Assembly: GCA_037440925.1 (NCBI GenBank)
Contig: JBBITF010000006.1
Coordinates: forward strand, 1 to 64,000
Direction: 5' to 3'
DNA from: Chloroflexota bacterium
GTDB lineage: Bacteria > Chloroflexota > Anaerolineae > Anaerolineales > Villigracilaceae
Length of the DNA: 64,000 nt
The notes under the pieces are model-generated. The model was not told where the DNA came from. It saw only the letters and a program-made list of their open reading frames with translations, and searched no databases. Numbering within the stretch: position 1 is the first letter of the stretch; every line of letters starts with the position of its first letter. A program made the translations under genes and the position numbers. Positions 32,208 to 55,926 of the stretch are shown in pieces.

Positions 32208-32251
32208 CAGACCGAAGCGCTTTGTAAGATATTCTTTTTGAGGAGGTAGAT

Positions 32252-33422: not shown

Positions 33423-33433
33423 GAGAATAACCT

Positions 33434-34879: not shown

Positions 34880-34894
34880 CCCTTGGAGACAGCC

Positions 34895-35659: not shown

Positions 35660-35674
35660 GGCAGGAGAATGAAC

Positions 35675-36049
35675 ATGAAACGTTTTCTAATTTTCTTCGG
35701 TTCACTGCTTGTGACTGTGGCGTTGCTGTTGGCCCTCTTGCCCGCTGCTACGGCCCAAGCCCTTCCCGAATATTCAGCGCAGACCGGGGAACCCTGCGCC
35801 TCTTGTCACATCAGCCCCTCGGGCGGCGGCCCCCGCGGCCCGCGCGGGCAGGCCTGGGTAGCCTCCGGCAAACCCGGCGCCGTGCCGGATACGCTCCAGG
35901 CGCTCGAATTGCTGGGCGTCGAATTGAGCGTGGATCCGGCCTATTTTACGGCAACAGGTTTCGAGGTCCAGGAACCGGAAGCGCTGCAGGTCGCTCCGGC
36001 CCAGAGCGTGCGCTTGTACCGTTGGTTGAGTCAATATGATGGCAATTAG
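35675..36049 (+). CDS. Secreted monohaem cytochrome c
   Basis: Sec signal peptide (LLALLPAATAQA) and a single CASCH. AGGAG lies 8 nt before ATG 35675; the alternative start is ATG 35669. Confidence 0.75.
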   Translation: MKRFLIFFGSLLVTVALLLALLPAATAQALPEYSAQTGEPCASCHISPSGGGPRGPRGQAWVASGKPGAVPDTLQALELLGVELSVDPAYFTATGFEVQEPEALQVAPAQSVRLYRWLSQYDGN

Positions 36050-36080
36050 TCGTCGTGCGTTGATCGGTAAAGGATAGCCT

Positions 36081-38450: not shown

Positions 38451-38477
38451 TTGGAATTTTATATTTGGAGGTAGAAC

Positions 38478-39164: not shown

Positions 39165-39168
39165 TGAT

Positions 39169-40515: not shown

Positions 40516-40704
40516 ATGAACATTGGCGGTTTGGTTCACGCATATTTCGACAATGCCGGCCCGGGCGGAGTCTTTGTCTTGCTGGTTGTCGGCGTTGCCT
40601 GCACTACCTACTACCTCCTGGCCCGCTGGTTCGTAGCCGGCGGTAGAACAGAGAGCCAGGCAGTTCCTTCTACCGATGAACAACCTGTGAGCATGGACGA
40701 ATGA
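40516..40704 (+). CDS. 62-aa single-TM protein (ActD-like position)
   Basis: AGGAGG RBS, one TM helix (VFVLLVVGVACTTYYLL), and a 4-nt ATGA overlap with the next gene. Confidence 0.55.
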   Translation: MNIGGLVHAYFDNAGPGGVFVLLVVGVACTTYYLLARWFVAGGRTESQAVPSTDEQPVSMDE

Positions 40705-42791
40705 AACGACGAATTCTGCTTCCCTCCCTGGTCTTCCTGGCGGTCCTGACGCTGGCCGTCGGCTCCGTCTCCGCTTCCTCCCTCGACTTCAGCCTGCCTG
40801 CCTCGGCCGAAGGAGAGACTCTCGTCTCCGGCAATTACTGCGCCTCCTGTCATCTGACCGATGACCCGCGCCTGGCGTCTGCCACGGCTTGGAAAGGCGG
40901 CATCCAAAGCAAAGTCAACTCGCCCTGCCCGGCAGCCATCAAAATACACGAAGAACTATATTACACCGAACGGTTGCTGCTCATGATCGAACGCGCCGAA
41001 AACGCAGTTGGCCCCTTGCCCGAAAAGAGCCAGGCTCGTTTGGAGGACTATACCCAGCGTTACAGCCGTATGCTCGATACGCCTGTCGGCAGCCTGGACG
41101 CTTTCGTCAGTGAAGCCCAGTCAACTCGTTATCAGTTGAACAAGGCCTATGCTGCGCTCAATCAAATGGCGCAAGACGCCAAACAGCGCACAATCTTGAC
41201 GTATGCGGCGGCGATTACCTTGATTGTGCTTGGCTCATTGGCCTGGGGCGTGTACAACTCCCGCGCGCTGGCCTCTGGAAAGGTGAGCCGATCTTGGGGG
41301 CTATTCTGGCGTGTGCTGTTTATCGTGGCTGTTGTGGCGTTCTTTACCTTGCCTTTCTTCCGTGTGCCGGCCGAAGAGGTGGTGATGACCACTGCCGAAC
41401 AGCAGGAAGCCCAGGCAACCCTCGATGCCGCTCAACGCGCAGCCGACGCTGCCGACCGTTCGCAGGCGCGCGCCTGGATGTTAGCCCGCGTTGCGGCTGC
41501 CTATGCCGAAATGGACGCCGCCCAAGCCCAGGCTATCCTGGATGAAGCGCTGACCTCGCTCGACGTAGCCCGCAAGAACGAAGAAGCCCTGTGGGGGCAA
41601 AGCCTGGTCGTGCAAGAAGTGACGGTTGGCACCAAAATCGAAATGGAATCGGCCGGCCTCATCACCGCCGACCTGAACGCTGCCCGCGCCCGCGCCTGGG
41701 CCTTGCCGCTGGTTGCCCGGCAGTGGAACGCCCTCGATCCAATCAAAGCCGCCGCCCTCTTACAGGCCGAACAGGACGCCCTGATTGGCCAAGAAGGCCT
41801 CTACCGTGATTTACAATTGCGCGCCCTATCGCTGGCCTGGGTCGAAGTGAATCCTTCCAAGGCCGCCCCTGCTGCCGCCCAAATACAGGACGCTTCCCTG
41901 CGCGCCTGGACCTTCCGTGAACTGGCGGACCTGACCCACAACCCCTCACTCTATGACAAAGCCCTCCAGGCTGCGCGTGAAATCACGGACCCTGTCCAGA
42001 AAGCGCGCGCCCTGCGAGAGATTGCCCACTCTTCTGGCAAGAGCGCCCTTTTCGAGGAAGCCCTGACCGCGCTAGATGGCGTGACCGACCCCGCTTTGGC
42101 CTATGCCCTCAGCGACCTGGCCGCTGCCTGGGGCAACGCTTCTCTGGTCGAAAGAATCGCCTACCCCGATGCCCGCGCCAGCGCCTTGCTGCGCATGGGA
42201 GAATACCCCTCCGCTTGGGAGGCGGCGGCAGGCATCGCTGATCCTTACGAACAGGCGCGCGCCCAAGCCGCCATTGCTTCTGCCTGGGGCAATGCCGATG
42301 CCGCCATGCAGATTGCTGTCCCCTTATACCGCGATTTGGCATTGCGCGATGTCATCCGAAAAACGGGAAATACGTCACTGGCAGAGGCAATTACCTCCAA
42401 GTACTATAAAGTCCAGGCTCTAACTGCTCTAGGCGAGACCGAATCTGCCCTCCAAGTAGCCGCCGACCTGGGCGAAACCTACCCCTTGGTTGATTTGGCT
42501 GTCCATTTGTCCGCCTCCAATCCGCAGGCGGCGTTGGCCTTGGTCGAGCAGATGAAGCGCGAAAGCGACAAAGCCATTGCCTTGCAGGCTATTGCTGTTG
42601 CCTCGCAGGACCCGTCGCTCATCGAACAGGCGCAGGGCATGGCACTGGCCGCCCGCGTGCGCGGCGACTCGCTGGCCCCGGCCCAGGCTTTGCTCGATCT
42701 TGCAAATGCCCTTCTGGAAGTAGATGTCAAATACGCAGAAGCAGCCTTTCGTCAGGCGTATGAAGCGGCGCAGCGCATTGCAACCAAATGA
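40701..42791 (+). CDS. Monohaem cytochrome c domain + two TM helices + ~450-aa Ala-rich helical-repeat (HEAT/TPR-like) domain protein
   Basis: Signal peptide, a single CASCH, two TM helices (ILTYAAAITLIVLGSLAWGVY and LFWRVLFIVAVVAFFTLPFF), then repeated ~30-aa units of the form D-x-x-x-(R/K)A-x-AL-x-x-IA-x-x-W. Confidence 0.75.
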   Translation: MKRRILLPSLVFLAVLTLAVGSVSASSLDFSLPASAEGETLVSGNYCASCHLTDDPRLASATAWKGGIQSKVNSPCPAAIKIHEELYYTERLLLMIERAENAVGPLPEKSQARLEDYTQRYSRMLDTPVGSLDAFVSEAQSTRYQLNKAYAALNQMAQDAKQRTILTYAAAITLIVLGSLAWGVYNSRALASGKVSRSWGLFWRVLFIVAVVAFFTLPFFRVPAEEVVMTTAEQQEAQATLDAAQRAADAADRSQARAWMLARVAAAYAEMDAAQAQAILDEALTSLDVARKNEEALWGQSLVVQEVTVGTKIEMESAGLITADLNAARARAWALPLVARQWNALDPIKAAALLQAEQDALIGQEGLYRDLQLRALSLAWVEVNPSKAAPAAAQIQDASLRAWTFRELADLTHNPSLYDKALQAAREITDPVQKARALREIAHSSGKSALFEEALTALDGVTDPALAYALSDLAAAWGNASLVERIAYPDARASALLRMGEYPSAWEAAAGIADPYEQARAQAAIASAWGNADAAMQIAVPLYRDLALRDVIRKTGNTSLAEAITSKYYKVQALTALGETESALQVAADLGETYPLVDLAVHLSASNPQAALALVEQMKRESDKAIALQAIAVASQDPSLIEQAQGMALAARVRGDSLAPAQALLDLANALLEVDVKYAEAAFRQAYEAAQRIATK

Positions 42792-42812: not shown

Positions 42813-43196
42813 ATGTTGAATGAATATACCGGTAAGCGCGTTCTTGTGATTGCCACCTTTGGTTCTGCTAACCCAGAGCGCGGCCCCGGTCCATTTGTCT
42901 TTGCCGGCGAAGCCGCCAGGGGCGGCGCTGAAGTCATGCTCATCTTTGTCTTGCAAGCGCCGCTGCTCCTCAAGCGGGGCGTTGCGGAGAAATTGTATGC
43001 CAAACAAGGCGGGCGTACCATCCGCGAATTCATTGATGATGCCCTGCGGCTTGGGGTAAAATGCTATGTGTGTGATACGGCGTTGCAACTTTGCGACATG
43101 ACGCCCGAAGACTTGATTGAAGAAGTGGACGAACTGGTCGGCCCCAGTTTCTTGATCAAACAAGGATTACAGGCTGATCTGGTTCTCTCTTTCTAA
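42813..43196 (+). CDS. DsrE/DsrF-like family protein
   Basis: 127 aa with a DsrE-fold pattern: KRVLVIATFGS..., central cysteines VKCYVCDTALQLC, and C-terminal FLIKQGLQADLVLSF. Confidence 0.65.
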   Translation: MLNEYTGKRVLVIATFGSANPERGPGPFVFAGEAARGGAEVMLIFVLQAPLLLKRGVAEKLYAKQGGRTIREFIDDALRLGVKCYVCDTALQLCDMTPEDLIEEVDELVGPSFLIKQGLQADLVLSF

Positions 43197-43215
43197 AAAA
43201 CCATTTGGAGGTAGT

Positions 43216-43416
43216 ATGTTCATCGTAACCATTGATATCCAAAAATGTAAAGCCTGCGGTGATTGCGTGGAAAATTGCCCTCAACAGGCCATTGCCATCA
43301 CCGAAGAAGGCGGCAAAAAGTATGCCATGTTTACCGGTAGTCCCGATGATTGTATTGGCTGCTTATCCTGCGAATCTTCTTGTGAAGAAGGCGCCATTAC
43401 CGTTACCGAGTACTAA
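43216..43416 (+). CDS. 2x[4Fe-4S] ferredoxin
   Basis: CKACGDCVENCP and CIGCLSCESSC. GGAGG RBS. Confidence 0.85.
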   Translation: MFIVTIDIQKCKACGDCVENCPQQAIAITEEGGKKYAMFTGSPDDCIGCLSCESSCEEGAITVTEY

Positions 43417-43463
43417 TCGCGCTGTTTTCTCCTCTTACGCTAACGGCTGGATGTATTCCCCTG

Positions 43464-44888
43464 ATGACTGCTCGAACCCGTCATGCGCCTCGTCTGGTCA
43501 TTGCGGCGCCCCAGGGTCGAAGTGGAAAAACCACCCTGACCTTGGGATTGTGCGCCGCATTCAAAGCGCGCGCGCTGACCATCCAGCCCTACAAAAAAGG
43601 ACCCGATTACATTGATCCCTCCTGGCTGAGTGAAGCCGCTGGAACCCTCTGCCGTTCCCTAGACCCTTTCTTTTACGAAAAGCCCGAAGAACTCTTACGG
43701 GCTTTTCTGCGCTCTGCTCCTCAAGATGGGGTGAGCCTGATCGAAGGCAATCACGGCTTGTTTGACTCCTTCGATGAAAGCGGACGAGGTAGCACGGCTG
43801 CGGTTGCGCGCACGTTGCAGGCTCCCCTCCTGTTGGTGATCAATGCCGCCCGCATGGGGCGCAGCGCCGCGGCCATCGTGCATGGCTGTCAAACCTTCGA
43901 GCCAGAAACGAACATCGCCGGCGTGGTTCTGAACAACGTAGCGCAAGGTCGCCACGAGGCCCGTATGCGCCAGGCCATTGAAAGTCGCTGCGGTGTGCCT
44001 GTATTGGGCGCCATTCCACGCGACGAAACCCTGACCATCCCCGACCGTCACCTGGGATTGGTGCCTCGCGCCGAACAAGACGCGCTTCTTCCCGCCATCA
44101 CAGCCTGCCGGCAGACTATCGAGCGCTACCTCGACCTCGATGCTGTCCTGGCTATAGCCCGGGCTGCGCCTGCTTTACCCGCTCCCTCTCCGGCCTCCTC
44201 CGCGGCCCAGCCGGTCTCGCATCGGCCGCTCATCGGCGTCCTGCGCGACCGTGCCTTTACCTTCTACTACCCTGAAAATTTAGAAGCCCTGGAAGAAGCC
44301 GGTGCCGACCTGCTCTTCCTGGACGCTTTGCGTGACGCCGAATTGCCCCCTGTAGACGCCCTCTACATCGGCGGCGGCTTCCCCGAAATATTCATGGACG
44401 AGTTGTCTGCCAACGTTTCTCTGCGCCGCGCCATCCGCGAAGCCATCGAAAACGACTTGCCGGTCTACGCCGAATGCGGCGGCCTGATGTACCTCTCCCA
44501 GCGCATTGTGTGGGGCGAAAAATCGGCCGAGATGGTGGGCGCCTTGCCCTGCGAAATCGAAATGACCTCCAAACCCCAGGGACATGGCTACGTAACTGCC
44601 CAGGTGGAGGCCGAGAATCCTTTTTTCTCGCCGGGCCTGCTCTTGCGTGGACATGAGTTCCACAACTCGCGGCTTGTAATGCTCCCTGGCAACCGCCTTG
44701 CAACGGCTTATCGCCTCTTGCGCGGCAATGGAGTAGGCGATGGCCGCGATGGGCTTCTTTACCGTAACACATTGGCTTCTTACACTCATTTGCATTCTGG
44801 CGGAGCGCCTGACTGGGCCGTTGGCCTGGTTCATCGGGCGCAGGTTTATCGAGAAAACCGCCTACAAGCAGAAATGGATAACAGATGA
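43464..44888 (+). CDS. dsrN: Cobyrinic acid a,c-diamide synthase family protein, DsrN (sirohaem amidase) by context
   Basis: P-loop APQGRSGKTTLTLGL with KKGPDYIDPSW, and a C-terminal glutamine-amidotransferase part (YAECGGLMYL, GHEFHNS). Located in the dsr operon. Confidence 0.85.
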   Translation: MTARTRHAPRLVIAAPQGRSGKTTLTLGLCAAFKARALTIQPYKKGPDYIDPSWLSEAAGTLCRSLDPFFYEKPEELLRAFLRSAPQDGVSLIEGNHGLFDSFDESGRGSTAAVARTLQAPLLLVINAARMGRSAAAIVHGCQTFEPETNIAGVVLNNVAQGRHEARMRQAIESRCGVPVLGAIPRDETLTIPDRHLGLVPRAEQDALLPAITACRQTIERYLDLDAVLAIARAAPALPAPSPASSAAQPVSHRPLIGVLRDRAFTFYYPENLEALEEAGADLLFLDALRDAELPPVDALYIGGGFPEIFMDELSANVSLRRAIREAIENDLPVYAECGGLMYLSQRIVWGEKSAEMVGALPCEIEMTSKPQGHGYVTAQVEAENPFFSPGLLLRGHEFHNSRLVMLPGNRLATAYRLLRGNGVGDGRDGLLYRNTLASYTHLHSGGAPDWAVGLVHRAQVYRENRLQAEMDNR

Positions 44889-46015
44889 GGCTGCCTCTCC
44901 TTTCCAATATTGGTAATTTTTTCCCAAAATTGCGCTCGAAACCGGATGTCCAGGCCTCCAAAAAACGGCCGTTTAACGTCGTGCAAATCGAAATCACCAG
45001 TCGCTGCAGCACCGGCTGTGTCTTCTGCCCGCATGATGCTTTGTCTGACAAATGGATAGACGGGGACCTGTCGCCGCTCATGTATGAAGAATATATCGTC
45101 CCGCATCTGGATTTGTTCGATTTGGTGTACCTGCAAGGCTGGGGCGAACCTATGCTGCACCCCAACCTGTGGGATATGCTGGCCTCGGCTCAAGACAAGG
45201 GTTGCCGCACCGGCTTCACCACCAACGGCGCCTGGCTGCAAAGCGAACAAAATCAGCGTCTGGTAGAGATGGGTGTGGATATGATTTCCGTCTCTTTTGC
45301 CGGGACGGCTGCTCCCATTCACGAATCGCTGCGTACCAATTCTCAGTTTGCCGAACTGTGTAGCAATTTCGAGAGCCTGGCCAACCTCAAGAAACAACGC
45401 GGCGTGACCAAACCCTGGCTCGAATTGCATTTCCTGATGACCCGCGCCAATTTGAAAGAATTCCCTGGCCTGGTCGAACTGGCTGCCTCCCTAGGCGCGG
45501 ATGAAGTAGTCGCCACCAACCTCACCTATTCCCCGAGCCTGGCGCTAGACCGGATGCACATCTTTGGCGAACAGCCTCTGCCTGAAGATGTCGAACTGAT
45601 TCAGCGCGCCCAAGCCAACGCTGAACGGCTGAACATTCCGCTGCGCGTTTACCCGCTCCAAACCGAACCCAATACCCTGGTCTGTGACGCTGACCCGCTC
45701 AATACCGTGTACGTCAACCATCGCGGCGAGGTCTCCCCTTGTGTCTATCTGGGGCTAACAGTGCAGGGAAGGGTTCCGCGCTTCTATCAGGGCGAAGCTC
45801 ACCCATTTGACGCCCTTTCCTTTGGAAATATTCAGACAGGTTTCTTGAAGGCGCTTCATGGAAAAGAGCGCGAGACCTTCCTGTCTGCTTTCAAACAACG
45901 CAATATGACCAGCGGCCCTCTGGCGATGCTTACCTACATGTCCGAACCAGGCCAGGCTGAATTGCCGCCTCCGCCTGTCCCTTGTCAGCATTGCTACAAA
46001 ATGTTGGGCGTGTGA
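44885..46015 (+). CDS. Radical SAM enzyme with C-terminal SPASM/twitch-like Cys region (NirJ/Ahb/MoaA-like style)
   Basis: CSTGCVFC (Cx3Cx2C) follows VVQIEITSRC. The GWGEPML motif is present. C-terminal cysteines are CDADP...SPCVYL...PCQHC. There is a 4-nt ATGA overlap with dsrN. Confidence 0.85.
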   Translation: MRLPLLSNIGNFFPKLRSKPDVQASKKRPFNVVQIEITSRCSTGCVFCPHDALSDKWIDGDLSPLMYEEYIVPHLDLFDLVYLQGWGEPMLHPNLWDMLASAQDKGCRTGFTTNGAWLQSEQNQRLVEMGVDMISVSFAGTAAPIHESLRTNSQFAELCSNFESLANLKKQRGVTKPWLELHFLMTRANLKEFPGLVELAASLGADEVVATNLTYSPSLALDRMHIFGEQPLPEDVELIQRAQANAERLNIPLRVYPLQTEPNTLVCDADPLNTVYVNHRGEVSPCVYLGLTVQGRVPRFYQGEAHPFDALSFGNIQTGFLKALHGKERETFLSAFKQRNMTSGPLAMLTYMSEPGQAELPPPPVPCQHCYKMLGV

Positions 46016-46085
46016 ACGATCATGATCGCTCAACTCCCTACTTTTCTTTTGAGAGGACCTAAAATTTTTGTTGAAGAGGTTTCCA

Positions 46086-48944
46086 ATGCCAAACGATGCA
46101 CAAAATAAGACAGCCAAGAACCAAGAGCAAGCCTGGCACGCGCTGCCTGTCGAGGAAGTGCTTCGCCACCTCGAAGTGCAGGAAAATGGATTGAGCGCCG
46201 AACAGGCTGCCCAACGTTTGAAACAATATGGACCGAACCAATTGCAGGAAGCGCCGCGCCCCACCTTTTGGCACATGCTGTGGGAGCAGTTGAACAACTT
46301 TGTGGTCATCCTGCTCATCGTGGCATCCATTATTTCTGCCCTCTTGGGCGATTACGTGGAAGCCGCTGCCATCATGGCCATCGTCGCGCTGAATGCCGTT
46401 CTCGGCATCATTCAGGAACAGCGCGCCGAAGAAGCCCTGGCGGCATTGAAAAAATTGGCCGCGCCCGATGCCCAGGTGCTGCGCGATGGCCGCCGGCAGA
46501 CCATCCCGGCGCGCGACCTGGTGCCCGGCGACATCGTCTTCCTGGAAGCAGGCAATTTCGTCCCGGCGGATGTGCGCCTGCTCGAGGCGGTCAACCTGCG
46601 CATCGAAGAGGCCTCCCTCACCGGCGAGTCCCTGCCGGTGCAGAAGAGCGCCGTTTCCATCATTGACAAGGATGTGCCGATTGGCGACCGCAAGAACACC
46701 GCCTTCATGGGGACGACCGTTTCCTACGGGCGCGGACGCGGCGTGGTGGTCAGCACCGGGATGCGCACCCAGTTGGGCCTGATCGCCACCATGCTCCAGA
46801 CCGTGGAAACAGAGGAAACCCCGCTCCAGCGTCGCCTCGATCAGTTGGGCAAGACCTTGAGCATCGCCTCGCTCATCCTGGTTGCCATCGTCTTCGTGGT
46901 GGCTTTGCTCGATTACACCAATATCAATTTGCTTTTCAGCGGGCCGCTGGATTACTTCAAATCCTATAGCCGCGAGATTACGGATGTGTTCATCATCGCG
47001 GTCAGTCTGGCGATTGCAGCCGTGCCAGAGGGCCTGCCGGCCGTTGTGACTATCAGCCTGGCGCTGGGTATGCGCGAGATGATCCGCCGTCACGCCCTCA
47101 TCCGCAAACTGGCCTCTGTGGAGACGCTTGGCTCGGCCACCGTCATCTGTTCCGATAAGACCGGCACCCTGACTCAGAACGAGATGACCGTTACGCGCCT
47201 GTGGGCCGACGGCCAGTTCTTGCATGTCACCGGCACGGGCTACGTTCCGCAAGGAGAGTTTCAGGTGGATGGGAAGACAGTGGACATCAAGAACTATCCC
47301 GCCATCCTGACCTCCCTGTGGCTGGGCGTGCTGAACAACGACGCCGACATCGAGATTACCGGCGAGACTGAGGACGAAAAGACCTACCGCATCGTGGGCG
47401 ATCCCACCGAGGGCGCGTTACTTGTGGCGGCGGCCAAAGCAGGCGCCTTCCACGTCGAGGTGAAGCAGGCCTACCCGCGTGAGAACGAAGTGCCGTTCGA
47501 CTCGGAACGCAAGCGTATGATCACCATCCACGATGTAAGCCAACCGCGCCCGGAGGATATTTCCCCCTTTTATGACAACAAGATGAAGGATTGGGAGGTG
47601 ATTGCCGTCAAAGGCGCGCCCGACATCGTGCTGGGATTGTGTTCCCATTACCAGACGATGGATGACAAATCGAAACCGCTGACCGAAGAACAGCGCCAGC
47701 GCATCTTAGCCGCCAACGACGAGATGACGAAAGATGCTCTGCGCGTGCTGGGCGTGGCTTACCGCATCGTAAAAGAAGTGCCACAGACGGCTGACGGCTT
47801 GAAACCCGAAGAACTGGAAAAAGACCTGGTCTTCGTCGGCCTCTTGGGCATGATTGACCCGGCGCGTTTAGAAGTCAAACCTGCGCTCGAACAGGCGCGC
47901 CAGGCCGGCATCCGCACCGTCATGATCACCGGCGACTATCCTAACACCGCGCGCGCCATCGCCGAATCCATCGGCCTGATGAAGCGCCGCACGCGCGTGC
48001 TGACCGGCGCCGAAGTAGACAAAATGTCTGACGATGGGTTGCGCGACGTCATCGAGGAGACGGCCGTCTTTGCGCGCGTCTCGCCGGAACACAAGATGCG
48101 CATCGTGGACGCGCTGCAAGCCAATGGCGAAGTGGTCGCCATGACCGGCGACGGCGTCAACGATGCCCCGGCCATCAAGCGCGCCGACATCGGCGTAGCC
48201 ATGGGCATCACCGGCACCGACGTGGCCAAGGAAACCGCCGACATGGTGTTGACCGACGACAATTACGCCAGCATCGTCTCGGCGGTCGAGCAGGGACGCA
48301 TCATTTACAGCAACATCCGTAAATTTGTATATTATCTGCTTTCCTGCAATGTGGCAGAAATCCTGGTCATCTTCCTGGGTACGCTCATCTCGAAGAGCTC
48401 TCCTCTCACGGCTATCCAATTGCTCTGGCTCAACTTGGTGACCGACGGCGCCCCTGCTTTGGCCCTGGCCACGGAAAAGGGAGATCCAGACATTATGTCT
48501 CGTTTACCCCGTCCAAAGAATGAACCCATTATCAATCGTTTCATGCAATTGGGCATTCTTGTCCAAACGCTTGCCATTACCAGCGTGACGCTGGGGGCCT
48601 ACTTCTTGGGGTTGAAACTTCACCCCGAACAGCCCGAGTTTGCAGAAGCCATGGCGTTCGTTACCTTGTCACTCTCTGAACTGGCGCGCGCTTTTACGGC
48701 TCGCTCGGAATACTACCCCTTGTTCAAAATCGGGGTGTTCACGAACCGCAATATGAACCTGGCGATTCTACTTTCGGCCGCTTTGATCTTTGCGGTCATC
48801 TACATCCCATTCTTCAACCCCATTTTCAATACCGTTCCGCTAGGCTGGCAACAATGGGAAGTGTTGCTGCCTTTGCTCCTGGTGCCATCCCTGGCTGCTG
48901 AGATACTCAAGTATATCCATCAAAAAACTCGGAAACAGGATTGA
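46086..48944 (+). CDS. P-type cation-transporting ATPase (P2, Ca2+/Mg2+-type)
   Basis: Motifs: TGES, CSDKTGTLTQN, MITGD, GDGVNDAPALKRADIGVAMG-type (GDGVNDAPAIKRADIGVAMG). About 10 TM helices. Confidence 0.95.
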   Translation: MPNDAQNKTAKNQEQAWHALPVEEVLRHLEVQENGLSAEQAAQRLKQYGPNQLQEAPRPTFWHMLWEQLNNFVVILLIVASIISALLGDYVEAAAIMAIVALNAVLGIIQEQRAEEALAALKKLAAPDAQVLRDGRRQTIPARDLVPGDIVFLEAGNFVPADVRLLEAVNLRIEEASLTGESLPVQKSAVSIIDKDVPIGDRKNTAFMGTTVSYGRGRGVVVSTGMRTQLGLIATMLQTVETEETPLQRRLDQLGKTLSIASLILVAIVFVVALLDYTNINLLFSGPLDYFKSYSREITDVFIIAVSLAIAAVPEGLPAVVTISLALGMREMIRRHALIRKLASVETLGSATVICSDKTGTLTQNEMTVTRLWADGQFLHVTGTGYVPQGEFQVDGKTVDIKNYPAILTSLWLGVLNNDADIEITGETEDEKTYRIVGDPTEGALLVAAAKAGAFHVEVKQAYPRENEVPFDSERKRMITIHDVSQPRPEDISPFYDNKMKDWEVIAVKGAPDIVLGLCSHYQTMDDKSKPLTEEQRQRILAANDEMTKDALRVLGVAYRIVKEVPQTADGLKPEELEKDLVFVGLLGMIDPARLEVKPALEQARQAGIRTVMITGDYPNTARAIAESIGLMKRRTRVLTGAEVDKMSDDGLRDVIEETAVFARVSPEHKMRIVDALQANGEVVAMTGDGVNDAPAIKRADIGVAMGITGTDVAKETADMVLTDDNYASIVSAVEQGRIIYSNIRKFVYYLLSCNVAEILVIFLGTLISKSSPLTAIQLLWLNLVTDGAPALALATEKGDPDIMSRLPRPKNEPIINRFMQLGILVQTLAITSVTLGAYFLGLKLHPEQPEFAEAMAFVTLSLSELARAFTARSEYYPLFKIGVFTNRNMNLAILLSAALIFAVIYIPFFNPIFNTVPLGWQQWEVLLPLLLVPSLAAEILKYIHQKTRKQD

Positions 48945-48951
48945 CTTAACG

Positions 48952-48995
48952 AACGTCCCGAAGGTTCCAAAACCTTCGGGACGTTTTATTTTGTT
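48952..48995 (+). terminator. Rho-independent terminator after the ATPase gene (shared spacer with the convergent operon)
   Basis: A 15-bp perfect stem AACGTCCCGAAGGTT-ccaa-AACCTTCGGGACGTT is followed by TTATTTTGTT. Confidence 0.8.
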
Positions 48996-49014
48996 CGGGA
49001 AATCCCCGGCTATT

Positions 49015-50820
49015 CTACTCGCCCGTCAAACCGGCCAGCGTCCCATTCAGGTCTTCCTGGTAGGTGGTGTGACAGGTGCTGCAAAGCGCCAGTTGGGGCT
49101 TGTTTTGTTCGACGGCTTGCTGTTGGTGGCAGGTCAGGCAGCGGCCGTGCATGGCGTCTTTGTAACCGGGCGCCATGGCTTCAAATACAGTTTGGCCTTC
49201 GGCAGGCGTCATGGTCTCATGGCAATCCTGGCAGATCGCTGACGTTAACCGAATGTGTTCCTGTGCATGGCATTCCTGGCAACTTGCGTTCCCGCCCAGT
49301 TCCTGCTGGTGCAGGCTGTGATCGAAGATCGAAGCCGGGCGATAATAATCGGTGTGACAGGCCGAACATGCCGTCGCTTCATCGTTTGGGCGGTCCAGGT
49401 GATGGCAAACCTGGCAGTTGCTCTCGCCGGTGGCCTTATTCATCAAACGTTCCTGGTGCTCCAGATGGGGAAAATTGACTACATAGCCGCTGCGGTTGCC
49501 GTCTATTTGCAGCGGTTCCCAGCCTCTAGCCTCCATGACCGGCGTGGCAGGCGGCTGCGCTTTGACAATCAACACCGGCACCGCCAGCGCCATGACGAAG
49601 ACGGCCAGACGGCTGCGATGCGCGACGATGGCCCTCAGCCACGAGCCTTGACCGGCCAACCAGGTCGCCCTGGCGGGCGCCGCCGCTTCTTCCTCCGCTT
49701 CGGCCTGCTTGCCGAACAATTGCAGATTCTCGGCGAAGAACAGGTACAGCAAGAACGCCGCCGACGGGATGGCGAAGGCGATGGCCGTTTCGCCCAGCGA
49801 AGGGGTATAGGCTGTACCCGCCGCCCGGTACATGGTGAACATGCTCAGCGACATGCGCTGGCTCATGATGCCCAGAATGCCCAGCACGGCGCCGGTCAGC
49901 AGGCCCTCGCGCCTCTCTCGTGTCTTTTTGATGCTGAACAGGACAATGGGAAGCACCCCGCACAACAGGATTTCGGCCAGGAATAAAATGCTTTGCCAGG
50001 AACCATCCAGCGCGCCGGGCAGCACCCCGCGCAGAACCTGGTCGCCCAGGCGCAGCAGCAAGTACAGTCCCAGCGGCAGGGGCGTCCACTTTCCCAAAGT
50101 GGTCAGGATGTCGAAGTGCATCCCGCGTTTGAACCAGCGCTCGACAAAGAAGCCTTCTACAATTAACGCCATCATGCCGGCTGCAATGGCGCTGGTGAAG
50201 AACAGGTAAGGCAGCCAGGGACTATACCACAGCGGGTGGACGCGATGCGGCATGATGAGGAACAGCGATCCCAGCGAGGACTGGTGCAAAGTAGATAGAA
50301 CGATGCCGGCAATCACCAGCGGCAGGGTGAACTTGTGAAGCCAGTGCAGCAGGGTCTTGAAGAGCGGGTGGCGGAACCAGGGATGTTCCAGGATGACCGG
50401 AGAAAACTCCAGCACCAGCACCGAGAAATACAGCATCACACACCAGGCAATCTCGAACATGACCGAGTGATGCTGCCAACTGATGATGGGCATGTAAATG
50501 TGCCAGGGCAGGCCCAGGTCGAAAATCAGGGAGACGATGAATGAGCCGTAGCCCAGCAGAGCCACCAAAATCGCCCGCCGCAAGATGGGGCGGAAGAATT
50601 CCAGGTGGAAAATGTACACCAGTGCCGCCAGGGTGAAGCCGCCGCCGGCGATGGCGACGAACACCAGTTTGAAAGCGATCCACAGCCCCCAGGGGGCAGA
50701 GTCATTGAGTCCGGTAGCGGCCCCAAGTCCGGCAGCGAAGCGAATGATAGAGGCCACCAGGCCCGCCAGGGCGATGGCCCACAATCCATCTTTGATCCAA
50801 GTGCGCGTAGTCGTGTTCAC
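49015..50820 (-). CDS. NrfD/HybB-like membrane subunit fused to a C-terminal hexahaem cytochrome c3-like domain
   Basis: N-terminal ~400 aa polytopic NrfD/HybB-like region (PWGLWIAFKLVFVAIAGGGF), an extra TM helix, then six CxxCH motifs: CQVCH, CSACH, CQECH, CQDCH, CLTCH, CSTCH. Confidence 0.85.
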   Translation of the reverse strand: MNTTTRTWIKDGLWAIALAGLVASIIRFAAGLGAATGLNDSAPWGLWIAFKLVFVAIAGGGFTLAALVYIFHLEFFRPILRRAILVALLGYGSFIVSLIFDLGLPWHIYMPIISWQHHSVMFEIAWCVMLYFSVLVLEFSPVILEHPWFRHPLFKTLLHWLHKFTLPLVIAGIVLSTLHQSSLGSLFLIMPHRVHPLWYSPWLPYLFFTSAIAAGMMALIVEGFFVERWFKRGMHFDILTTLGKWTPLPLGLYLLLRLGDQVLRGVLPGALDGSWQSILFLAEILLCGVLPIVLFSIKKTRERREGLLTGAVLGILGIMSQRMSLSMFTMYRAAGTAYTPSLGETAIAFAIPSAAFLLYLFFAENLQLFGKQAEAEEEAAAPARATWLAGQGSWLRAIVAHRSRLAVFVMALAVPVLIVKAQPPATPVMEARGWEPLQIDGNRSGYVVNFPHLEHQERLMNKATGESNCQVCHHLDRPNDEATACSACHTDYYRPASIFDHSLHQQELGGNASCQECHAQEHIRLTSAICQDCHETMTPAEGQTVFEAMAPGYKDAMHGRCLTCHQQQAVEQNKPQLALCSTCHTTYQEDLNGTLAGLTGE

Positions 50821-50821
50821 G

Positions 50822-51613
50822 TTATTGCTCCTCGGTGGGTTGACTCTGGCGCGCTTTTTGCGCCGCCTGTGCCTGCATACGCCGTTCGATAATCCAGAAC
50901 AGTCCGGTCATCAAACCCGCGGTGCCAATGGTAATGGCGGGTACCTTGCTTAGCCACTCCCAGGTCAGTTCTGGCATGGGCTTCTGGATAGGAGCGCCGT
51001 GATAGCCCAGGAAATCTAACGGAACGTGGGAAATGTACATTACGGCTGTGCCGCCGACTTCCTGCGCGCCATAGACGATGGGCAGATATTTGTGCGGGGC
51101 TTCCTGGATGCGCTGGTTGGCGATTTCGAGCAGTTCGCTCCTTTCGCCAAAGGTCAGCACCTTTTCAGGGCAGGTTTCTACACAGGCGGGCAGTTGTCCC
51201 TGTTGGATGCGGCCATAGCATAACGTACATTTCTGCACCAACGGCGCGGGGGAGTCCCATTCGTAGCGCGGAATGCCAAAGGGACAGGCCATCATGCAAT
51301 AGCGGCAGCCCATACACTTTTGGCTATCGTAGATCACTGCCCCTTCGGGCGTGCGGTACATGGCGCCGACCGGGCAGGCCGAGACGCAGGCCGGTTCCAG
51401 ACAGTGGCGACAGAATTTTCGCACGAAGCCGCCTTCGGGGCTTTCGACAATGGACGACCAGCGGCGCGCCGACAAGCCATCGGGAGATTGCTGCGGCAGG
51501 TATTCGAGCGCGCCCAGGTGGTTGACTTCGGCGCAGGCCTCCACGCATTGATTACAACCCGTACAGCGGGTGACATCCACTAAAATACCAACTTGTTTTA
51601 TCGTGCCGCTCAT
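50822..51613 (-). CDS. 4x[4Fe-4S] protein with C-terminal TM anchor (HmcB/DsrO/HybA-like)
   Basis: Motifs: CTGCNQCVEAC, CRHCLEPACVSACP, CMGCRYCMMACP, CTLC...CVETCP. C-terminal helix ITIGTAGLMTGLFWII. No N-terminal Tat or Sec signal is visible. Confidence 0.9.
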   Translation of the reverse strand: MSGTIKQVGILVDVTRCTGCNQCVEACAEVNHLGALEYLPQQSPDGLSARRWSSIVESPEGGFVRKFCRHCLEPACVSACPVGAMYRTPEGAVIYDSQKCMGCRYCMMACPFGIPRYEWDSPAPLVQKCTLCYGRIQQGQLPACVETCPEKVLTFGERSELLEIANQRIQEAPHKYLPIVYGAQEVGGTAVMYISHVPLDFLGYHGAPIQKPMPELTWEWLSKVPAITIGTAGLMTGLFWIIERRMQAQAAQKARQSQPTEEQ

Positions 51614-52314
51614 ATTTTCCTCCCTTCGGGGCCATGAAGCGCTTGCACGGCTTTGCTGCCGGCTTGTGGGACGAAGTGCCAGGCAATTTCTGTGCTGAGG
51701 CGGATGAGGGGGAAGAGGACACAGTGGGCGATTTTGGTGAATGGCGTGACGAGCAGAAGAGCCATTCCATTCAGCGTGTGGAACAGCATTAGGCCGTTGT
51801 AAGGGATGGGGTTCCAGGGCTGCCCGGCAATGTAGCCGGAGAGGAAGATGTTGAAAATGAGTAACAACAGCACATAGTCGGCTGTCTTGCTCAAACGCCG
51901 CGAGGCCGGAACATACAGCCTGAACAGCAGCAACAGGCTGACCCCGACGATGCTGATGAGGGTCAGCACGTCTAGCACCGGCTTCGAGATGGCAAACCAG
52001 GCAATCCCGATGTTGTCCTTCAGAATGTCCAGGTGATTACGCAGGAAGAGGGACACAACCAGGATGCCGACGTGTAAGCCAAAAGAGGCAAAACTATAAG
52101 CGGCGCGGTTACGGTGCAGGCGGTTGAAGGGGAACAGCCATGAGAATGTCTGCACGACGATCTGCCGCATAGGAAGGCGGCGATCGCCGGCGCGGCGGAT
52201 GGCTGTAACCATATCCCAAACGGTCAAGGCAACCAGCCGCAGCAATGCCAGCGCGACCAGCGTCGCTACAAAGAAAAAGGCAGGGCCTTTGGCAAGCATC
52301 AACCAGGTTGGCAT
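51610..52314 (-). CDS. NarI/HdrE/DsrM/HmcE-like membrane cytochrome b subunit
   Basis: Five TM helices with conserved His residues (RLHRN, GLHVG, LFHTLNG, KIAHC). There is a 4-nt overlap with the downstream FeS gene. Confidence 0.8.
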   Translation of the reverse strand: MPTWLMLAKGPAFFFVATLVALALLRLVALTVWDMVTAIRRAGDRRLPMRQIVVQTFSWLFPFNRLHRNRAAYSFASFGLHVGILVVSLFLRNHLDILKDNIGIAWFAISKPVLDVLTLISIVGVSLLLLFRLYVPASRRLSKTADYVLLLLIFNIFLSGYIAGQPWNPIPYNGLMLFHTLNGMALLLVTPFTKIAHCVLFPLIRLSTEIAWHFVPQAGSKAVQALHGPEGRKI

Positions 52315-52349
52315 ATCGAAAAGAGCCTCCTACTCATTAAAGTTGGATA

Positions 52350-53726
52350 TCAGGAAAGGTCAATGGCGCGCAACACCAGGTCATGCACGCCGACGATTTG
52401 AACGGGCAGTTTGTGATAATCTACCAATTCTCGCAGTTGTTTCTTGCAGTTGGCGCAGGGCGAGGCCACGATCTGCGCCCCGCTGGCGCGGATTTGTTCG
52501 GCTTTGGTTTTTCCTGAGACTTGCATACGGAAGTCGAAAGTTTCATCCAGTGAGACCAGGCCGCCGCCTCCGCCGCAGCAATAGTTTTCGCGGCCACGAG
52601 GCGTCATTTCGACAAAGTCGGAAACGAAACTGCGCAACAATTGGCGCGGCTGTTCGATGATCCAGCCCGAGCGGGCAATGTTGCAGGGGTCATGATAAGT
52701 GACGCGCTCGGTAATCACATCCTTTTTCAGCCGCAATTTTCCTTCTTGCGCCGCCTGCGCAGTCAATTCCAGAATGCTGACTACCGGCAACGCGCGTTCC
52801 CCGGCAAAGGCAGGGACGAATTGACGCGCCGAACGGGCGGCGTGACCGCACTCCCCGATCAAAATTTTTTGCGCTTTCAAGCGATGCGCTTCTTCGACCA
52901 GTTTTTCGATGATGCGTTCCAGCACCCAATCGTTGTAGAACAAGCCGTAGTTGATGCCATCGAAGTATTTCGAGCCAATCGTCCAGGAGACGCCGGCTGC
53001 ATAGAGTGCAGCGGCATTGCCCATGAGCGTGTCCGCTTCCATGAGGTAGTCGCTGACGGCCGGGAAGAAGATGTACTCGGCGCCTTCCTGGTCAACCGGG
53101 AATTTGATTTCTTTGCCGGTGGTGTCTTTCAATTCCTCTTCCAGGAACTCGATGTTGTCCATCAAGGCTGGTAGCGGAATGGCCGAGGTGTTGGCGGTTG
53201 CGCCTTCCAATTGTTCGCGTACTGAAACAACCAGGCCTTTGGGCGCGATGCCCGCTTCACTGAGAACATAGCGCCCCAGATGGGCAATCAGGCCGTGATC
53301 AATGCCCAGCGGGCAATCCAGCGTGCAGCGCCGGCAGGCGTTACAGCGATAGAAGAATTCGGCCATTTCGTCTATTTTTGCGTTGCTCAGACTATCTTTG
53401 GGAGTAGCCCAACCCAGCCAATTTCTATCGTCCGAAAAGTATTGCTTATATACGTCCAGCAGCAAATTGGTGCGATAGCAGGGTACATCATAAGGGTCAT
53501 TTGTAGTCTGGTAGACCTGGCAACTAGACGCACAGCGCCCGCATTTGGCGCTGGTTTTGGCATACAGTTCGATTAGAAAACGGTAGTTGCTGTTACGCAA
53601 AATGGCTTCAAAAGCCGCCAGAAAGCGTTCTGCCCGCTTGTCTAGTTCAGGCAGCGTGCTGGATTCGAGATGGTAAAAATAAGGTTGGGATAAAGCGTCG
53701 GTCTTCTTTTCGGCGGGAGTCGTCAT
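52350..53726 (-). CDS. HdrD/DsrK/HmcF-like Fe-S CCG-domain protein
   Basis: Motifs: CGRCASSC, CNACRRCTLDCPLGID, CGHAARS, HDPCNIAR, YCCGGGGG, CANCKKQL. GAGGTG RBS. Confidence 0.9.
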   Translation of the reverse strand: MTTPAEKKTDALSQPYFYHLESSTLPELDKRAERFLAAFEAILRNSNYRFLIELYAKTSAKCGRCASSCQVYQTTNDPYDVPCYRTNLLLDVYKQYFSDDRNWLGWATPKDSLSNAKIDEMAEFFYRCNACRRCTLDCPLGIDHGLIAHLGRYVLSEAGIAPKGLVVSVREQLEGATANTSAIPLPALMDNIEFLEEELKDTTGKEIKFPVDQEGAEYIFFPAVSDYLMEADTLMGNAAALYAAGVSWTIGSKYFDGINYGLFYNDWVLERIIEKLVEEAHRLKAQKILIGECGHAARSARQFVPAFAGERALPVVSILELTAQAAQEGKLRLKKDVITERVTYHDPCNIARSGWIIEQPRQLLRSFVSDFVEMTPRGRENYCCGGGGGLVSLDETFDFRMQVSGKTKAEQIRASGAQIVASPCANCKKQLRELVDYHKLPVQIVGVHDLVLRAIDLS

Positions 53727-53738
53727 ATCATCACCTCG

Positions 53739-54296
53739 TTAAAGATTTTGAGAATGGGATGGAGGAAGCATCAATACTGCGATGCCGGTCGAGTCGCCGG
53801 TGTTGCGCCAGCGGTGGTAAGCGTCGCTGTTGAAAGCCAGGCTGTCGCCGGGGTTCAGGGTATAGGTTTGTCCGTCCAGTTCCAGTTCAACCTGGCCACA
53901 CAGGCATAAAATCGAGTGCCGGCGAGACGCCAGCGTTTCAGAGGGCGCAGCCGCTTTGGGCGCCGCAATCATACAGCCTGTGGTTTGAGGGGCGGTGGCC
54001 AGCAGTTGGAATGTCTGCCCGGCAATGTCGGCTTTGGCGGTGGCCTCATCTGCCCGCTGTAAGACCACAGCCGGCTTGCAAATTTCCAAAAATAGGGAAC
54101 TGGGCGTTACGCCCAGGGCGTGCGCAATTTTGCACAGGGTTTCGATACTTGGGGACACCTCGCTTCGCTCTACCATGCTGATGGTATTTGCAGACAGGTC
54201 GCACCCCCGCGCCAGTTGTTTGAGCGTCAGGCCATTTGCCTTGCGCAAGTAGCGGATCTTGTTACCTACATTGAGCCAGGTTTCGTGCGTTTTCAT
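53739..54296 (-). CDS. XRE-family HTH + cupin domain transcriptional regulator
   Basis: ORF 53739..54404, start ATG 54296 (MKTHETW). The HTH is LTLKQLARGCDLSANTISMVERSE. The C-terminal cupin is LNPGDSLAFNSDAYHRWRN. The stop is 12 nt before the HdrD-like gene. Confidence 0.85.
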   Translation of the reverse strand: MKTHETWLNVGNKIRYLRKANGLTLKQLARGCDLSANTISMVERSEVSPSIETLCKIAHALGVTPSSLFLEICKPAVVLQRADEATAKADIAGQTFQLLATAPQTTGCMIAAPKAAAPSETLASRRHSILCLCGQVELELDGQTYTLNPGDSLAFNSDAYHRWRNTGDSTGIAVLMLPPSHSQNL

Positions 54297-54460
54297 CGTT
54301 AAGACCTGAAAGAACAAGAACAATTTTCTTCTGTATCTTCTCGAAAGAGGCAGAACAGCCCTCTCGCTATTGAGAGGATACTTCTTCGACCTTTTCGGGA
54401 GCAAATTCGACTAAAGGGAGGCCTCGAAAAGAGCGTATTGTGCAAAAAAACACTATCTTT

Positions 54461-54489
54461 AATCTACCAAATTGTTGACAGGTCGTCAA
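54461..54489 (-). promoter_or_regulatory. Sigma-70-type promoter (TTGACG-N17-TAGATT) with an overlapping palindrome
   Basis: The - strand reads cTTGACGacctgtcaacaatttggTAGATTaaag. The -35 sits inside the palindrome TTGAC-aggtc-GTCAA (54475-54489). This is about 160 nt upstream of the regulator ATG. Confidence 0.45.
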
Positions 54490-54652
54490 GTATTTTGTGT
54501 ATTTTGGTTGAAATTAAGTGACAAACAACAAAAAAATTGGTTATTTTTATCCCCCCTCCTCGGCAAACTCTACAGCCGCCAGATCAGGCGCTGTTTGCAA
54601 TGGTTTGTAACTATCTTGACAATGTCACATTAAACATTTGTTCTGGTAAATC

Positions 54653-54770
54653 GCCCTCACCCGGCCCTCTCCCGGCGGGAGAGGGGGCAAATCACTTGAA
54701 TTTTCGCGTTATTGCCTCTCCCTTTGGTGGTCGAGCTTGTCGAGACCTAGGAGAGGGTTAGGGTGAGGGC
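54653..54770. repeat. Nested palindromic GC-rich element (CCCTCACCC / CCTCTCCC family)
   Basis: Outer inverted repeat GCCCTCACCC (54653-62) / GGGTGAGGGC (54761-70). Inner hairpins are CCCTCTCCC-ggc-GGGAGAGGG (54665-85) and CCTCTCC...GGAGAGG (54715-56). The 13-mer CCTCTCCCTTTGG recurs at 62272-62284. Confidence 0.5.
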
Positions 54771-54861
54771 CAAACTACCTACCCGTTGATGAAGGATTGC
54801 TAAGCAAAACGCCAAATTTATCCACAGATGATGCAGATTTCGCCGATTTTTTTCTTCAATT

Positions 54862-55043
54862 GTAACTGCCTACCTCTAACATCGGTTTGGTTTTTGGGTG
54901 AGAAAACCATCCACGAATAAACCACGAATGCTCGAATGACGGCGTGATTCGTGTATTCGTGCAGTATTCGTGGACGGTTTGCGCTCGAATATAGGCAGGG
55001 TACGACATCTGCGGATGGTTTCCGAAGCCAGGTAGGCAGTTAC
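54862..55043. mobile_element. MITE-like non-coding element with 14-bp perfect terminal inverted repeats
   Basis: GTAACTGCCTACCT (54862-75) and AGGTAGGCAGTTAC (55030-43) flank ~150 bp. The interior holds inverted CCACGAAT x2 / ATTCGTG x3 modules. No transposase is present. Confidence 0.5.
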
Positions 55044-55206
55044 CCGCTTTTTGTGTTTCGGCGGTTGATTGCACAAAAGTCAGGCTAGCAGTCTGTCGGA
55101 GAATACTTGAAAATCGCCCCAGGGGAAGTGCAGGCGCCCGACAGTGTTACTATCGGACAACGAACCGCATGGGGGTTGCGGTGAGCAAGCAGGCGTTCTG
55201 GCGCCG

Positions 55207-55926
55207 TTAGTTTGCTAAATCGAATGTAAATTCCCAGGGGCCGCTCACCGTAAAGAATTCATCGCTGAACACGATTTGCTCGGCCTCTTCCTGACTCATT
55301 GTCTCTGGCTTAGATACGATTTGCATACTTTCAGCGCCATTCACTGTTTGACATTCCAGGGTAATGGCAATGCCGCGTTCGAGAAGCGCCTGTTGAATTT
55401 TGGGCATGTAAATCGAGCAATCTTCCTCTTCGCGTGGATAGGCGGCCAACGCCTGGATGCTGACGGCGACGACGTCGAGGTTGGCGTCTGGCGGGACGTA
55501 GAATTCCAGCATGTCACAGCGCAAACCGGGTTGCCCGTCTGCGCCTGGCTCTTGCAGGCTGATGAGTGTAGTGCCATATTCTTGCACCGTCTGATCGGCA
55601 TATTTCAGGCTGGCTTTCCAAATCGTCCAATCGGAGGCGTCGGGCAGGGTGAAACACACCTCGGCATAGACTTGTTTACCTTCCTGCCAGGCGCGCGTGA
55701 TGTTGACCTGAATGCCTCCTACCGCCTGCGGGGGCGAAATCTCGGCCGCCTCGGCAGTAGGATAGGAGGCTGCAATGAATGGGGTGGCCGAAGGTTGCAT
55801 GACGATGGCCGGTAGGAGGGTCGGGGAGGGTACAGGGGCAGCCGTTTGGGATGCAGCAGTCAACGGCCCGCAGGCCAATGCGGTCAGCAGAATGCCTGCC
55901 GCAGCCAGGAAGAGTTTTTTTTCCAT
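55207..55926 (-). CDS. Lipoprotein, function unknown
   Basis: Signal peptide with lipobox LTALAC-G. TAGGAG RBS. Confidence 0.7.
   Translation of the reverse strand: MEKKLFLAAAGILLTALACGPLTAASQTAAPVPSPTLLPAIVMQPSATPFIAASYPTAEAAEISPPQAVGGIQVNITRAWQEGKQVYAEVCFTLPDASDWTIWKASLKYADQTVQEYGTTLISLQEPGADGQPGLRCDMLEFYVPPDANLDVVAVSIQALAAYPREEEDCSIYMPKIQQALLERGIAITLECQTVNGAESMQIVSKPETMSQEEAEQIVFSDEFFTVSGPWEFTFDLAN

Follow-up and report, generated by a model that had tools for sequence, protein, structure and literature searches.

The gene cluster considered here belongs to an uncultured, predicted sulfite-reducing Chloroflexota bacterium of the family Villigracilaceae (assembly GCA_037440925.1) and lies at 49015-54296 of the window, namely the whole 64,000-nt stretch of contig JBBITF010000006.1 that was analysed. 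It consists of five tightly packed genes on the minus strand (Table 1). In order of transcription they encode a regulator made of an XRE-type helix-turn-helix (HTH) and a cupin domain; an HdrD/DsrK-like iron-sulfur protein with a CCG motif (hereafter the K subunit); a NarI-type cytochrome b (M); a four-cluster iron-sulfur protein with a C-terminal transmembrane (TM) anchor (hereafter the FeS protein); and an NrfD protein fused to a hexahaem cytochrome c (NrfD::c). All five open reading frames (ORFs) were found where a preliminary description had placed them, and the short spacers and overlaps reported there are real: in transcription order, the first two junctions measure 12 and 35 nt, the third is an ATGA overlap of 4 nt, and a single nucleotide separates the last two genes. 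A Shine-Dalgarno-like sequence precedes each of the five starts, and inspection of ORFs and junctions revealed no small additional gene of the HmcD kind between the four structural genes.

Table 1. Coordinates of the operon, its protein domains and its borders in the window.
Feature	Position	Strand	Basis
Promoter-like -35/-10 plus box	54438..54489	-	Consensus scan; block conserved in L002, L029, L066
XRE-HTH + cupin regulator, 185 aa, first gene of the operon	53739..54296	-	Pfam/NCBIfam
DsrK/HmcF/TmcB-family CCG + Fer4 iron-sulfur protein, 458 aa, cytoplasmic	52350..53726	-	Pfam/NCBIfam, motifs
NarI-type dihaem cytochrome b, 234 aa, 5 TM helices	51610..52314	-	NCBIfam, hydropathy
Fer4_11 four-cluster FeS protein, 263 aa, C-terminal TM anchor	50822..51613	-	Pfam/NCBIfam
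NrfD + class III cytochrome c fusion ORF	49015..50820	-	Pfam NrfD + Cytochrom_CIII
NrfD/HmcC/HybB-type quinone-interacting membrane domain, residues 1-373	49702..50820	-	Pfam/NCBIfam, AlphaFold2 (AF2)
Linker + eleventh TM helix, residues 374-423	49552..49701	-	Hydropathy, AF2
Hexahaem class III (c3-type) cytochrome c domain, residues 424-601 + stop codon	49015..49551	-	Pfam, CXXCH count
16-bp GC-rich hairpin	48951..48986	.	Terminator scan

The order K-M-FeS-NrfD::c, with overlapping or abutting genes, is present in about 50 loci of species-representative genomes from at least four phyla, namely Chloroflexota (Anaerolineales and others), Acidobacteriota including Thermoanaerobaculia, Methylomirabilota (NC10) and Armatimonadota. 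Presence of the module was called from a tblastn synteny table; naive ORF clustering misses genes in high-GC loci. The claim that the locus supplies every functional piece of a Dsr/Hmc-type complex in the arrangement K-M-O-P::c is borne out, and the arrangement is widespread. The best genomic matches are all metagenome-assembled or single-amplified genomes; one relative, L002 (loci being numbered with the prefix L), is 89% identical to the window. The fusion architecture also occurs in metagenomes, in more than 120 clusters at 55-100% identity, the named ones being Chloroflexota or Anaerolineales. A full-text literature search returned no description of an NrfD-hexahaem fusion or of a K-M-FeS-NrfD::c operon; the nearest mention, in Hausmann et al. 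(2018), is confined to dsrM2K2 paralogues and 'syntenic genes of unknown function'.

The K subunit contains two ferredoxin-type [4Fe-4S] motifs, a cysteine (C293) within GECGH and one CCG motif (C348, C383, C384, C424, C427); across 54 orthologues the motif cysteines are conserved at 93-100%. Hydropathy indicates no TM segment. Among the NCBIfam models it scores best with DsrK (290.7 bits), ahead of TmcB (213.6, cut-off 735) and HmcF (192.6, cut-off 750), and stays below the 400 bits demanded by the DsrK equivalogue NF045796, which the DsrK encoded elsewhere in the window passes with 526.5; the two proteins share 34% identity. One CCG motif plus the GECGH cysteine make up the catalytic signature of DsrK and, as had been proposed, place the protein in the DsrK/TmcB/HmcF group; it is not LutA- or GlcF-like. 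The same signature is common to DsrK, HmcF and TmcB (PMC10861901) and is therefore not specific to Dsr. The partner cytochrome b is closest to HmcE (104.2 bits, cut-off 275) and TmcC (91.5, cut-off 240), with only 19 bits to DsrM (cut-off 300). It has five helices, oriented N-out/C-in as in NarI according to hydropathy and the distribution of Lys and Arg, and its histidines H81, H94, H179 and H197 are conserved at 92-100% in 39 orthologues.

The NrfD domain exceeds the Pfam gathering threshold of PF03916 (74.4 bits vs 25.8), and its NCBIfam scores are 243.2 with HmcC (cut-off 550), 232 with HybB (450), 128 with QrcD and 17.6 with DsrP (350). Hydropathy, charge distribution and the AF2 model agree on 10 + 1 TM helices with a strong positive-inside bias. 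The eleventh helix (hydropathy peak at residues 405-423, AF2 helix at 387-419) is predicted to cross the membrane so that the haem domain sits on its outer face. Since the haem domain must lie outside, both ends of the NrfD domain are cytoplasmic, as they are in ActC and other 10-helix members of the family (review PMC8076601); the Pfam score, the ten helices, their orientation and the abutting four-cluster FeS gene assign the protein to that subgroup. ActC of alternative complex III is also the best fold match of the AF2 model (Foldseek E 2e-7, TM-score ~0.6 on target). This likeness is structural only, at 14-16% sequence identity, and alternative complex III has ActA, ActB, ActD, ActE and ActF and no cytochrome b/CCG module. 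With Escherichia coli HybB the domain shares 32% identity and most residues of the proposed quinone site and proton path (S97, D101, S119, E123, Y131, E138, E145, H179, S181, S182, R193, H195, R257, D260, E283 and R322).

The haem domain bears six CXXCH motifs, at residues 469, 485, 514, 530, 561 and 580, and seven further histidines, all invariant in 55 sequences. It matches Pfam Cytochrom_CIII (PF02085) with 50.4 bits against a gathering threshold of 22.9, and this score, together with enough distal histidines for bis-His ligation, marks it as c3-type with predicted haem attachment. Its matches in the PDB are a cytochrome c3 (3cao), a 16-haem cytochrome (1z1n) and a nine-haem cytochrome (1duw).

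The window also contains dsrA, dsrB, a canonical dsrC (32228-32569), dsrM and dsrK, in the order dsrA-dsrB-(dsrD)-dsrC-dsrM-dsrK, with dsrMK at 32676-34879. On the 3' side of dsrK follow genes for a Rieske protein, a protein resembling the complex iron-sulfur molybdoenzymes (CISM-like; QrcB/PhsA-like, at 36081) with a twin-arginine translocation (Tat) signal, an FeS protein and an NrfD protein. Behind these lie DsrE-like, DsrN-like and radical-SAM genes. The preliminary description had regarded this cluster and the five-gene operon as two paralogous DsrMK-type units 3 kb apart, the former coupled to a Rieske/CISM module and the latter to an NrfD-multihaem module, perhaps to serve different electron donors, and some of these points need adjustment. 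The two K subunits do look paralogous, at the identity given above, whereas the cytochrome b of the operon is of the HmcE/TmcC type; 3 kb is the gap between the gene clusters, with a P-type ATPase gene in it, whereas the two K-M pairs are some 16.7 kb apart; and the first cluster encodes two further proteins, an NrfD homologue at 39169-40497 and an exported haem protein at 40701-42791. The description as a Dsr/Hmc-type transmembrane module holds, but the FeS and NrfD proteins are of the HmcBC/HybAB type and not of the DsrOP type.

Linkage between the module and dsr genes extends well beyond this genome. Dsr genes lie within 8 kb of the module in 18 of 65 loci: in Chloroflexota, DsrN, DsrE, radical-SAM and ATPase neighbours flank it in 11/39 loci, and in 7/26 loci of the other phyla that distance includes either DsrN or dsrMK together with a DsrO-like FeS gene. 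In L048, L056 and L058 the dsrMK pair and the DsrO-like gene are directly upstream of the module; in L048 the module is flanked by dsrMKJOP and, on its other side, by a gene with a sat-like N-terminus (judged by eye, no search having been run). The module of L001/L015 has no dsr gene in the 10 kb around it, yet dsrABDC-MK is located about 280 kb away on the same 1.14-Mb contig. Among the matches listed, at least three contigs (81,817, 61,416 and 1,138,132 bp) putatively bear both the module and DsrA. The operon is therefore shared with other dsr-carrying genomes, often beside their dsr genes, and neither of the findings named as refuting the preliminary description is observed.

On these grounds the locus is probably an operon under its own regulator whose four structural genes encode a transmembrane complex for electron transfer, of the Hmc/Tmc/Dsr kind and autoregulated, linking haems on the outer face, menaquinone and a DsrK-type reductase. 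Six bis-His c-type haems tethered to NrfD on the outer face would exchange electrons with an external partner, candidates for which are hydrogenases, formate dehydrogenases, other cytochromes and extracellular donors or acceptors. From there electrons might use either of two routes, or both. Along the first, the dihaem cytochrome b would pass them across the membrane to the cytoplasmic DsrK-type subunit, whose non-cubane [4Fe-4S] cluster and GECGH cysteine may reduce the DsrC-trisulfide, dsrC being encoded in the window, or a related protein disulfide. Along the second, the four [4Fe-4S] clusters of the tail-anchored FeS protein would lead to the outer-face quinone site of the HybB-like NrfD, coupling the complex to the menaquinone pool in a manner that is probably electrogenic (shown for QrcD, proposed for HybB and HmcC). 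The XRE-cupin protein would act on the conserved promoter/operator to control transcription.

Comparison with characterised systems indicates that Hmc/Tmc-like is a better label for the module than Dsr/Hmc-type. Of the families scored, HmcB comes first for the FeS protein, HmcC for NrfD and HmcE for cytochrome b. Unlike HmcABCDEF of Desulfovibrio vulgaris, in which HmcA has 16 haems, the module has six, fused to NrfD, and the HmcA model gives the haem domain only 23-28 bits (cut-off 400); HmcD is absent; the order is F-E-B-C::A' instead of A-B-C-D-E-F; an N-terminal stretch of about 30 residues in the HmcB model has no counterpart in the FeS protein; the K subunit scores nearer to DsrK than to HmcF; and the regulator is XRE-cupin in place of Rrf1/Rrf2. 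With TmcABCD the module shares its core plan: a cytochrome c3 lies outside, a cytochrome b spans the membrane, and a protein with one CCG motif lies inside. It differs in that none of the TmcA (20.3 bits, cut-off 114), TmcB or TmcC cut-offs is reached, in its six haems, in the anchoring or fusion of the cytochrome, in the lack of a TmcD-like gene and in the extra FeS-NrfD pair. HybA and HybB of E. coli hydrogenase 2 resemble the pair in the C-terminal anchor, the ten TM helices and the quinone-site and proton-path residues, but their NrfD protein bears no haem domain and the pair is not joined to a cytochrome b/CCG pair; moreover, the scores of the module's proteins are below the HybA and HybB cut-offs, the FeS protein has no Tat signal, and no hydrogenase genes were seen in the flanks in the window or in related loci.

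With DsrMKJOP the module shares an MK pair joined to a cytochrome/FeS/NrfD set in a two-module architecture, as well as its genomic linkage to dsr. It could accordingly be a true second DsrMKJOP, that is, a dedicated terminal DsrC-trisulfide reductase replacing or duplicating DsrJOP, with the hexahaem domain standing in for DsrJ. A K subunit that is nearest to DsrK and has its catalytic signature, the frequent proximity to dsr genes, and a window that has dsrMK yet no protein of its dsr cluster passing the DsrJ, DsrO or DsrP cut-offs would all suit this explanation. Nonetheless it is unlikely, as the homologues of M, O and P are not Dsr-type (DsrM and DsrP at the scores given above and DsrO at 122 bits against a cut-off of 200, with HmcE, HmcB and HmcC far higher), the cytochrome is a six-haem c3-type domain and not a separate trihaem DsrJ, and the FeS protein has no Tat signal, as opposed to the DsrO of L048. 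Furthermore, L048, on inspection, already holds a full dsrMKJOP upstream of the module, which is thus an addition there and not a replacement.

The FeS protein deserves separate attention, for its place in the membrane bears on the second route. All 16 of its cysteines are invariant in 59 sequences, and its NCBIfam scores are highest with HmcB (243.5, cut-off 420) and HybA (180, cut-off 263). The TM anchor at residues 224-242 is followed by RRM. Only 16 residues precede the first cysteine and the ORF cannot be extended upstream; 10-16 residues precede it in 57/57 orthologues linked to FeS-NrfD, in every phylum, and all 57 finish with a TM helix and RRM or a similar motif. The lack of a Tat or Sec signal noticed initially is therefore real and conserved. 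In keeping with this, the alignment to E. coli HybA (34% identity) begins at HybA residue 38, past its Tat signal. The best match in the PDB is FdnH (1kqf_B, E 6e-41), a signal-less hitchhiker on the Tat pathway.

The preliminary description did not assign this subunit to either side of the membrane. Homology and topology suggest the outside: because the fusion fixes the orientation of NrfD and the quinone-site residues face outward, the FeS domain should lie on the outer face. A cytoplasmic orientation like that of SoeABC was considered and rejected, as the haem domain forces the NrfD ends into the cytoplasm as in HybB and ActC; it is also disfavoured by the conserved quinone-site residues in outward-facing loops and by the conserved RRM behind the tail anchor. 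A conserved signal-less partner of an NrfD protein whose orientation is fixed by fusion offers a clean test case for Tat hitchhiking.

Such co-export raises the question of whether the module is simply the membrane anchor and electron outlet of a Tat-exported enzyme with its gene at another locus (a periplasmic hydrogenase, a formate dehydrogenase or the neighbouring CISM-like protein, for instance), with the FeS protein as its hitchhiker. The hitchhiker FdnH is the best solved relative of the FeS protein, which scores second-best with HybA, as NrfD does with HybB. Signal-less, tail-anchored HybA-like proteins paired with HybB-like ones have been described in a survey solely beside Tat-bearing FeFe hydrogenases (PMC10924467); hitchhiker co-export has been proposed for them, and the FeS protein likewise has no signal peptide. 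The Tat-signal CISM-like protein of the first cluster would be a carrier within the window, but it is already paired with its own signal-less QrcC/DsrO-like FeS partner (38478-39164). The neighbourhoods inspected, which span at least four phyla, contain no candidate carrier gene next to the module, and a catalytic subunit docked on the FeS protein would make a fused hexahaem wire needless. As a full account of the module this is improbable, somewhat more so than a second DsrMKJOP, although it is compatible with the Hmc/Tmc/Dsr-kind complex favoured here and the two could coexist.

Some variants shed light on how the module may have been assembled. M-FeS-NrfD::c without the K subunit occurs in Calditrichota, Myxococcota and Fibrobacterota (L038, L040-L042). 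A library-wide search with the anchor-plus-haem region retrieved 431 representative clusters, among them separate cytochromes, some 200 aa long, with an N-terminal anchor helix equivalent to the eleventh helix of the fusion. In L085 such an anchored hexahaem cytochrome forms a three-gene cluster with K and M, and neither FeS nor NrfD is present; the K subunit and cytochrome b of this cluster share 55% and 33% identity, respectively, with those of the window, and their family scores are alike. Because the stand-alone cytochrome occurs in such a K-M cluster, the most plausible reading of the module is a Tmc-like core that has received a HybAB-like FeS-NrfD pair as an insertion, NrfD being fused to the anchor helix of the cytochrome. 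The three-gene and four-gene forms illustrate the modular assembly of these complexes. For comparable FeS/NrfD/multihaem modules of iron reducers a role as quinol:acceptor reductases has been proposed (PMC9386147). A module independent of sulfur, working between quinol and cytochrome c (or from cytochrome c to quinone) in extracellular or interspecies electron transfer, with the K subunit in some unrelated thiol redox reaction, is nevertheless very improbable in spite of that precedent, of the K-less variants and of the lack of dsr genes within 8 kb in most Chloroflexota loci, given the strong enrichment of dsr genes beside the module in at least two phyla, their verified co-occurrence with an unlinked module in one genome, and the retention of every DsrK-type catalytic residue in the K subunit.

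Several observations weigh against the favoured complex as well. All four subunits stay below the curated NCBIfam cut-offs of the Dsr, Hmc, Tmc and Hyb models, and any assignment of function is accordingly a transfer between clades. The existence of K-less variants implies that the cytochrome b/FeS/NrfD::c part can work without a cytoplasmic reductase. D58 of the HybB quinone site is replaced by an invariant lysine (K51) in the module, and in the AF2 model the TM helices are usable while the haem domain and the outer-face loops are of low confidence. No Tat-signal partner was found beside the module in the neighbourhoods inspected, in any phylum; with neither a Tat signal nor a carrier in cis, an FeS protein on the outer face would need an unexplained export route. 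Finally, the counts of dsr linkage cover 8-kb flanks, and unlinked co-occurrence is established for one genome.

The electron route to DsrC and its energy conservation are debated in model sulfate reducers and essentially unknown in uncultured dsr-carrying lineages, for which the electron link to DsrC now has a concrete candidate in an Hmc/Tmc-like module conserved alongside dsr genes in several phyla. More speculatively, and with rather less than even chances, K-M-FeS-NrfD::c6 may constitute a fourth family of DsrK-type complexes beside Dsr, Hmc and Tmc, serving as the main route between extracytoplasmic haems or quinones and DsrC in uncultured non-classical sulfite/sulfate reducers (Anaerolineales, Acidobacteriota, Methylomirabilota), its FeS protein being exported by trans-encoded hitchhiking or in an undescribed mode. 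The module is in any case a marker to add to genome-based predictions of sulfur metabolism.

As for regulation, both domains of the first gene product exceed their Pfam cut-offs (HTH_3, 58 bits; Cupin_2, 41 bits), which gives it the domain architecture of PuuR/SutR-like regulators, and the PuuR equivalogue of NCBIfam is not reached (53.7 bits vs a cut-off of 211). Some 30 Chloroflexota loci have an orthologue immediately 5' of their HdrD-like gene; it occurs in none of the loci of other phyla, where the module is accompanied by sigma-54 activators and sensor kinases; the operon thus has a regulator of its own, as first suggested. The cysteines of the protein are well conserved (C131 at 97%, C55 and C73 at 88%), and it is possible that a thiol-based signal is sensed. 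The cupin domain lacks the usual His-rich metal motif. The promoter reads TTGACG-17-TAGATT with an upstream TG and is followed by a conserved box, ATAGTGTTTTTTTGCACAA, which its position and conservation suggest as a candidate operator for the XRE-cupin regulator. The block at 54438-54489 is nearly invariant in L002, L029 and L066 amid diverged neighbouring DNA, which supports ATG 54296 as the start of the regulator gene.

The leader between this promoter and the regulator ATG is about 130 nt longer in the window and L002 than in L029 and L066, and contains a 7-bp hairpin (54360-54377). A second XRE-cupin paralogue (~30% identity), divergent from the operon regulator, is present in most Chloroflexota relatives (L003, L004, L006, L007, L013, L017-L019, L021, L022, L025-L028, L030, L036, L039, L054, L063), at ~3.7-4.3 kb in locus coordinates; it is missing from the window, L002, L029 and L066. 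The region 54297-55206, about 900 nt of lower GC content, has no ORF of at least 80 aa, and an Rfam scan of 48800-55400 returned no match there or elsewhere in that interval.

At the other end, the hairpin listed in Table 1 separates the operon from a convergent gene and is a probable bidirectional terminator. That gene (46068-48944) encodes a P-type ATPase and lies outside any redox module; the identification of its 958-aa product as a CISM subunit was dropped, the protein being a P-type cation ATPase. A block of DsrE-like, DsrN-like amidase, radical-SAM-SPASM and P-type cation ATPase genes (42813-48944) is kept beside the module in the closest relatives (L002, L003, L004, L009, L010, L029, L066). 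In 17 more distant Chloroflexota loci, the place of the convergent ATPase directly 3' of the fusion gene is occupied by an unassigned conserved gene of ~190 aa (e.g. L006 9739-10362, L013 9761-10393).

Within the first cluster, the layout of 32676-40497 recurs at 13215-21194 of L087, a 65%-related genome. The exported haem protein located between the NrfD and the DsrE-like genes (40701-42791, plus strand; 696 aa) has a Sec-type signal, a single CASCH haem motif, hydrophobic helices in its middle and a long Ala-rich helical C-terminal region, and matches no Pfam or NCBIfam family. Among the more remote loci, L020 (JASFER010000451.1, 3.5 kb) is labelled Desulfobacteraceae; its module is 56-58% identical to the Chloroflexota proteins, much nearer to them than the other non-Chloroflexota matches, and the label may be a binning error. 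Lastly, Acidobacteriaceae and Acidoferrales (L064-L081) have unfused pairs of a signal-less FeS protein and NrfD, at 39-47% identity, followed by a sensor kinase with CXXCH in its outer domain and a sigma-54 response regulator, with no gene for a cytochrome, a CCG protein or a catalytic subunit nearby.

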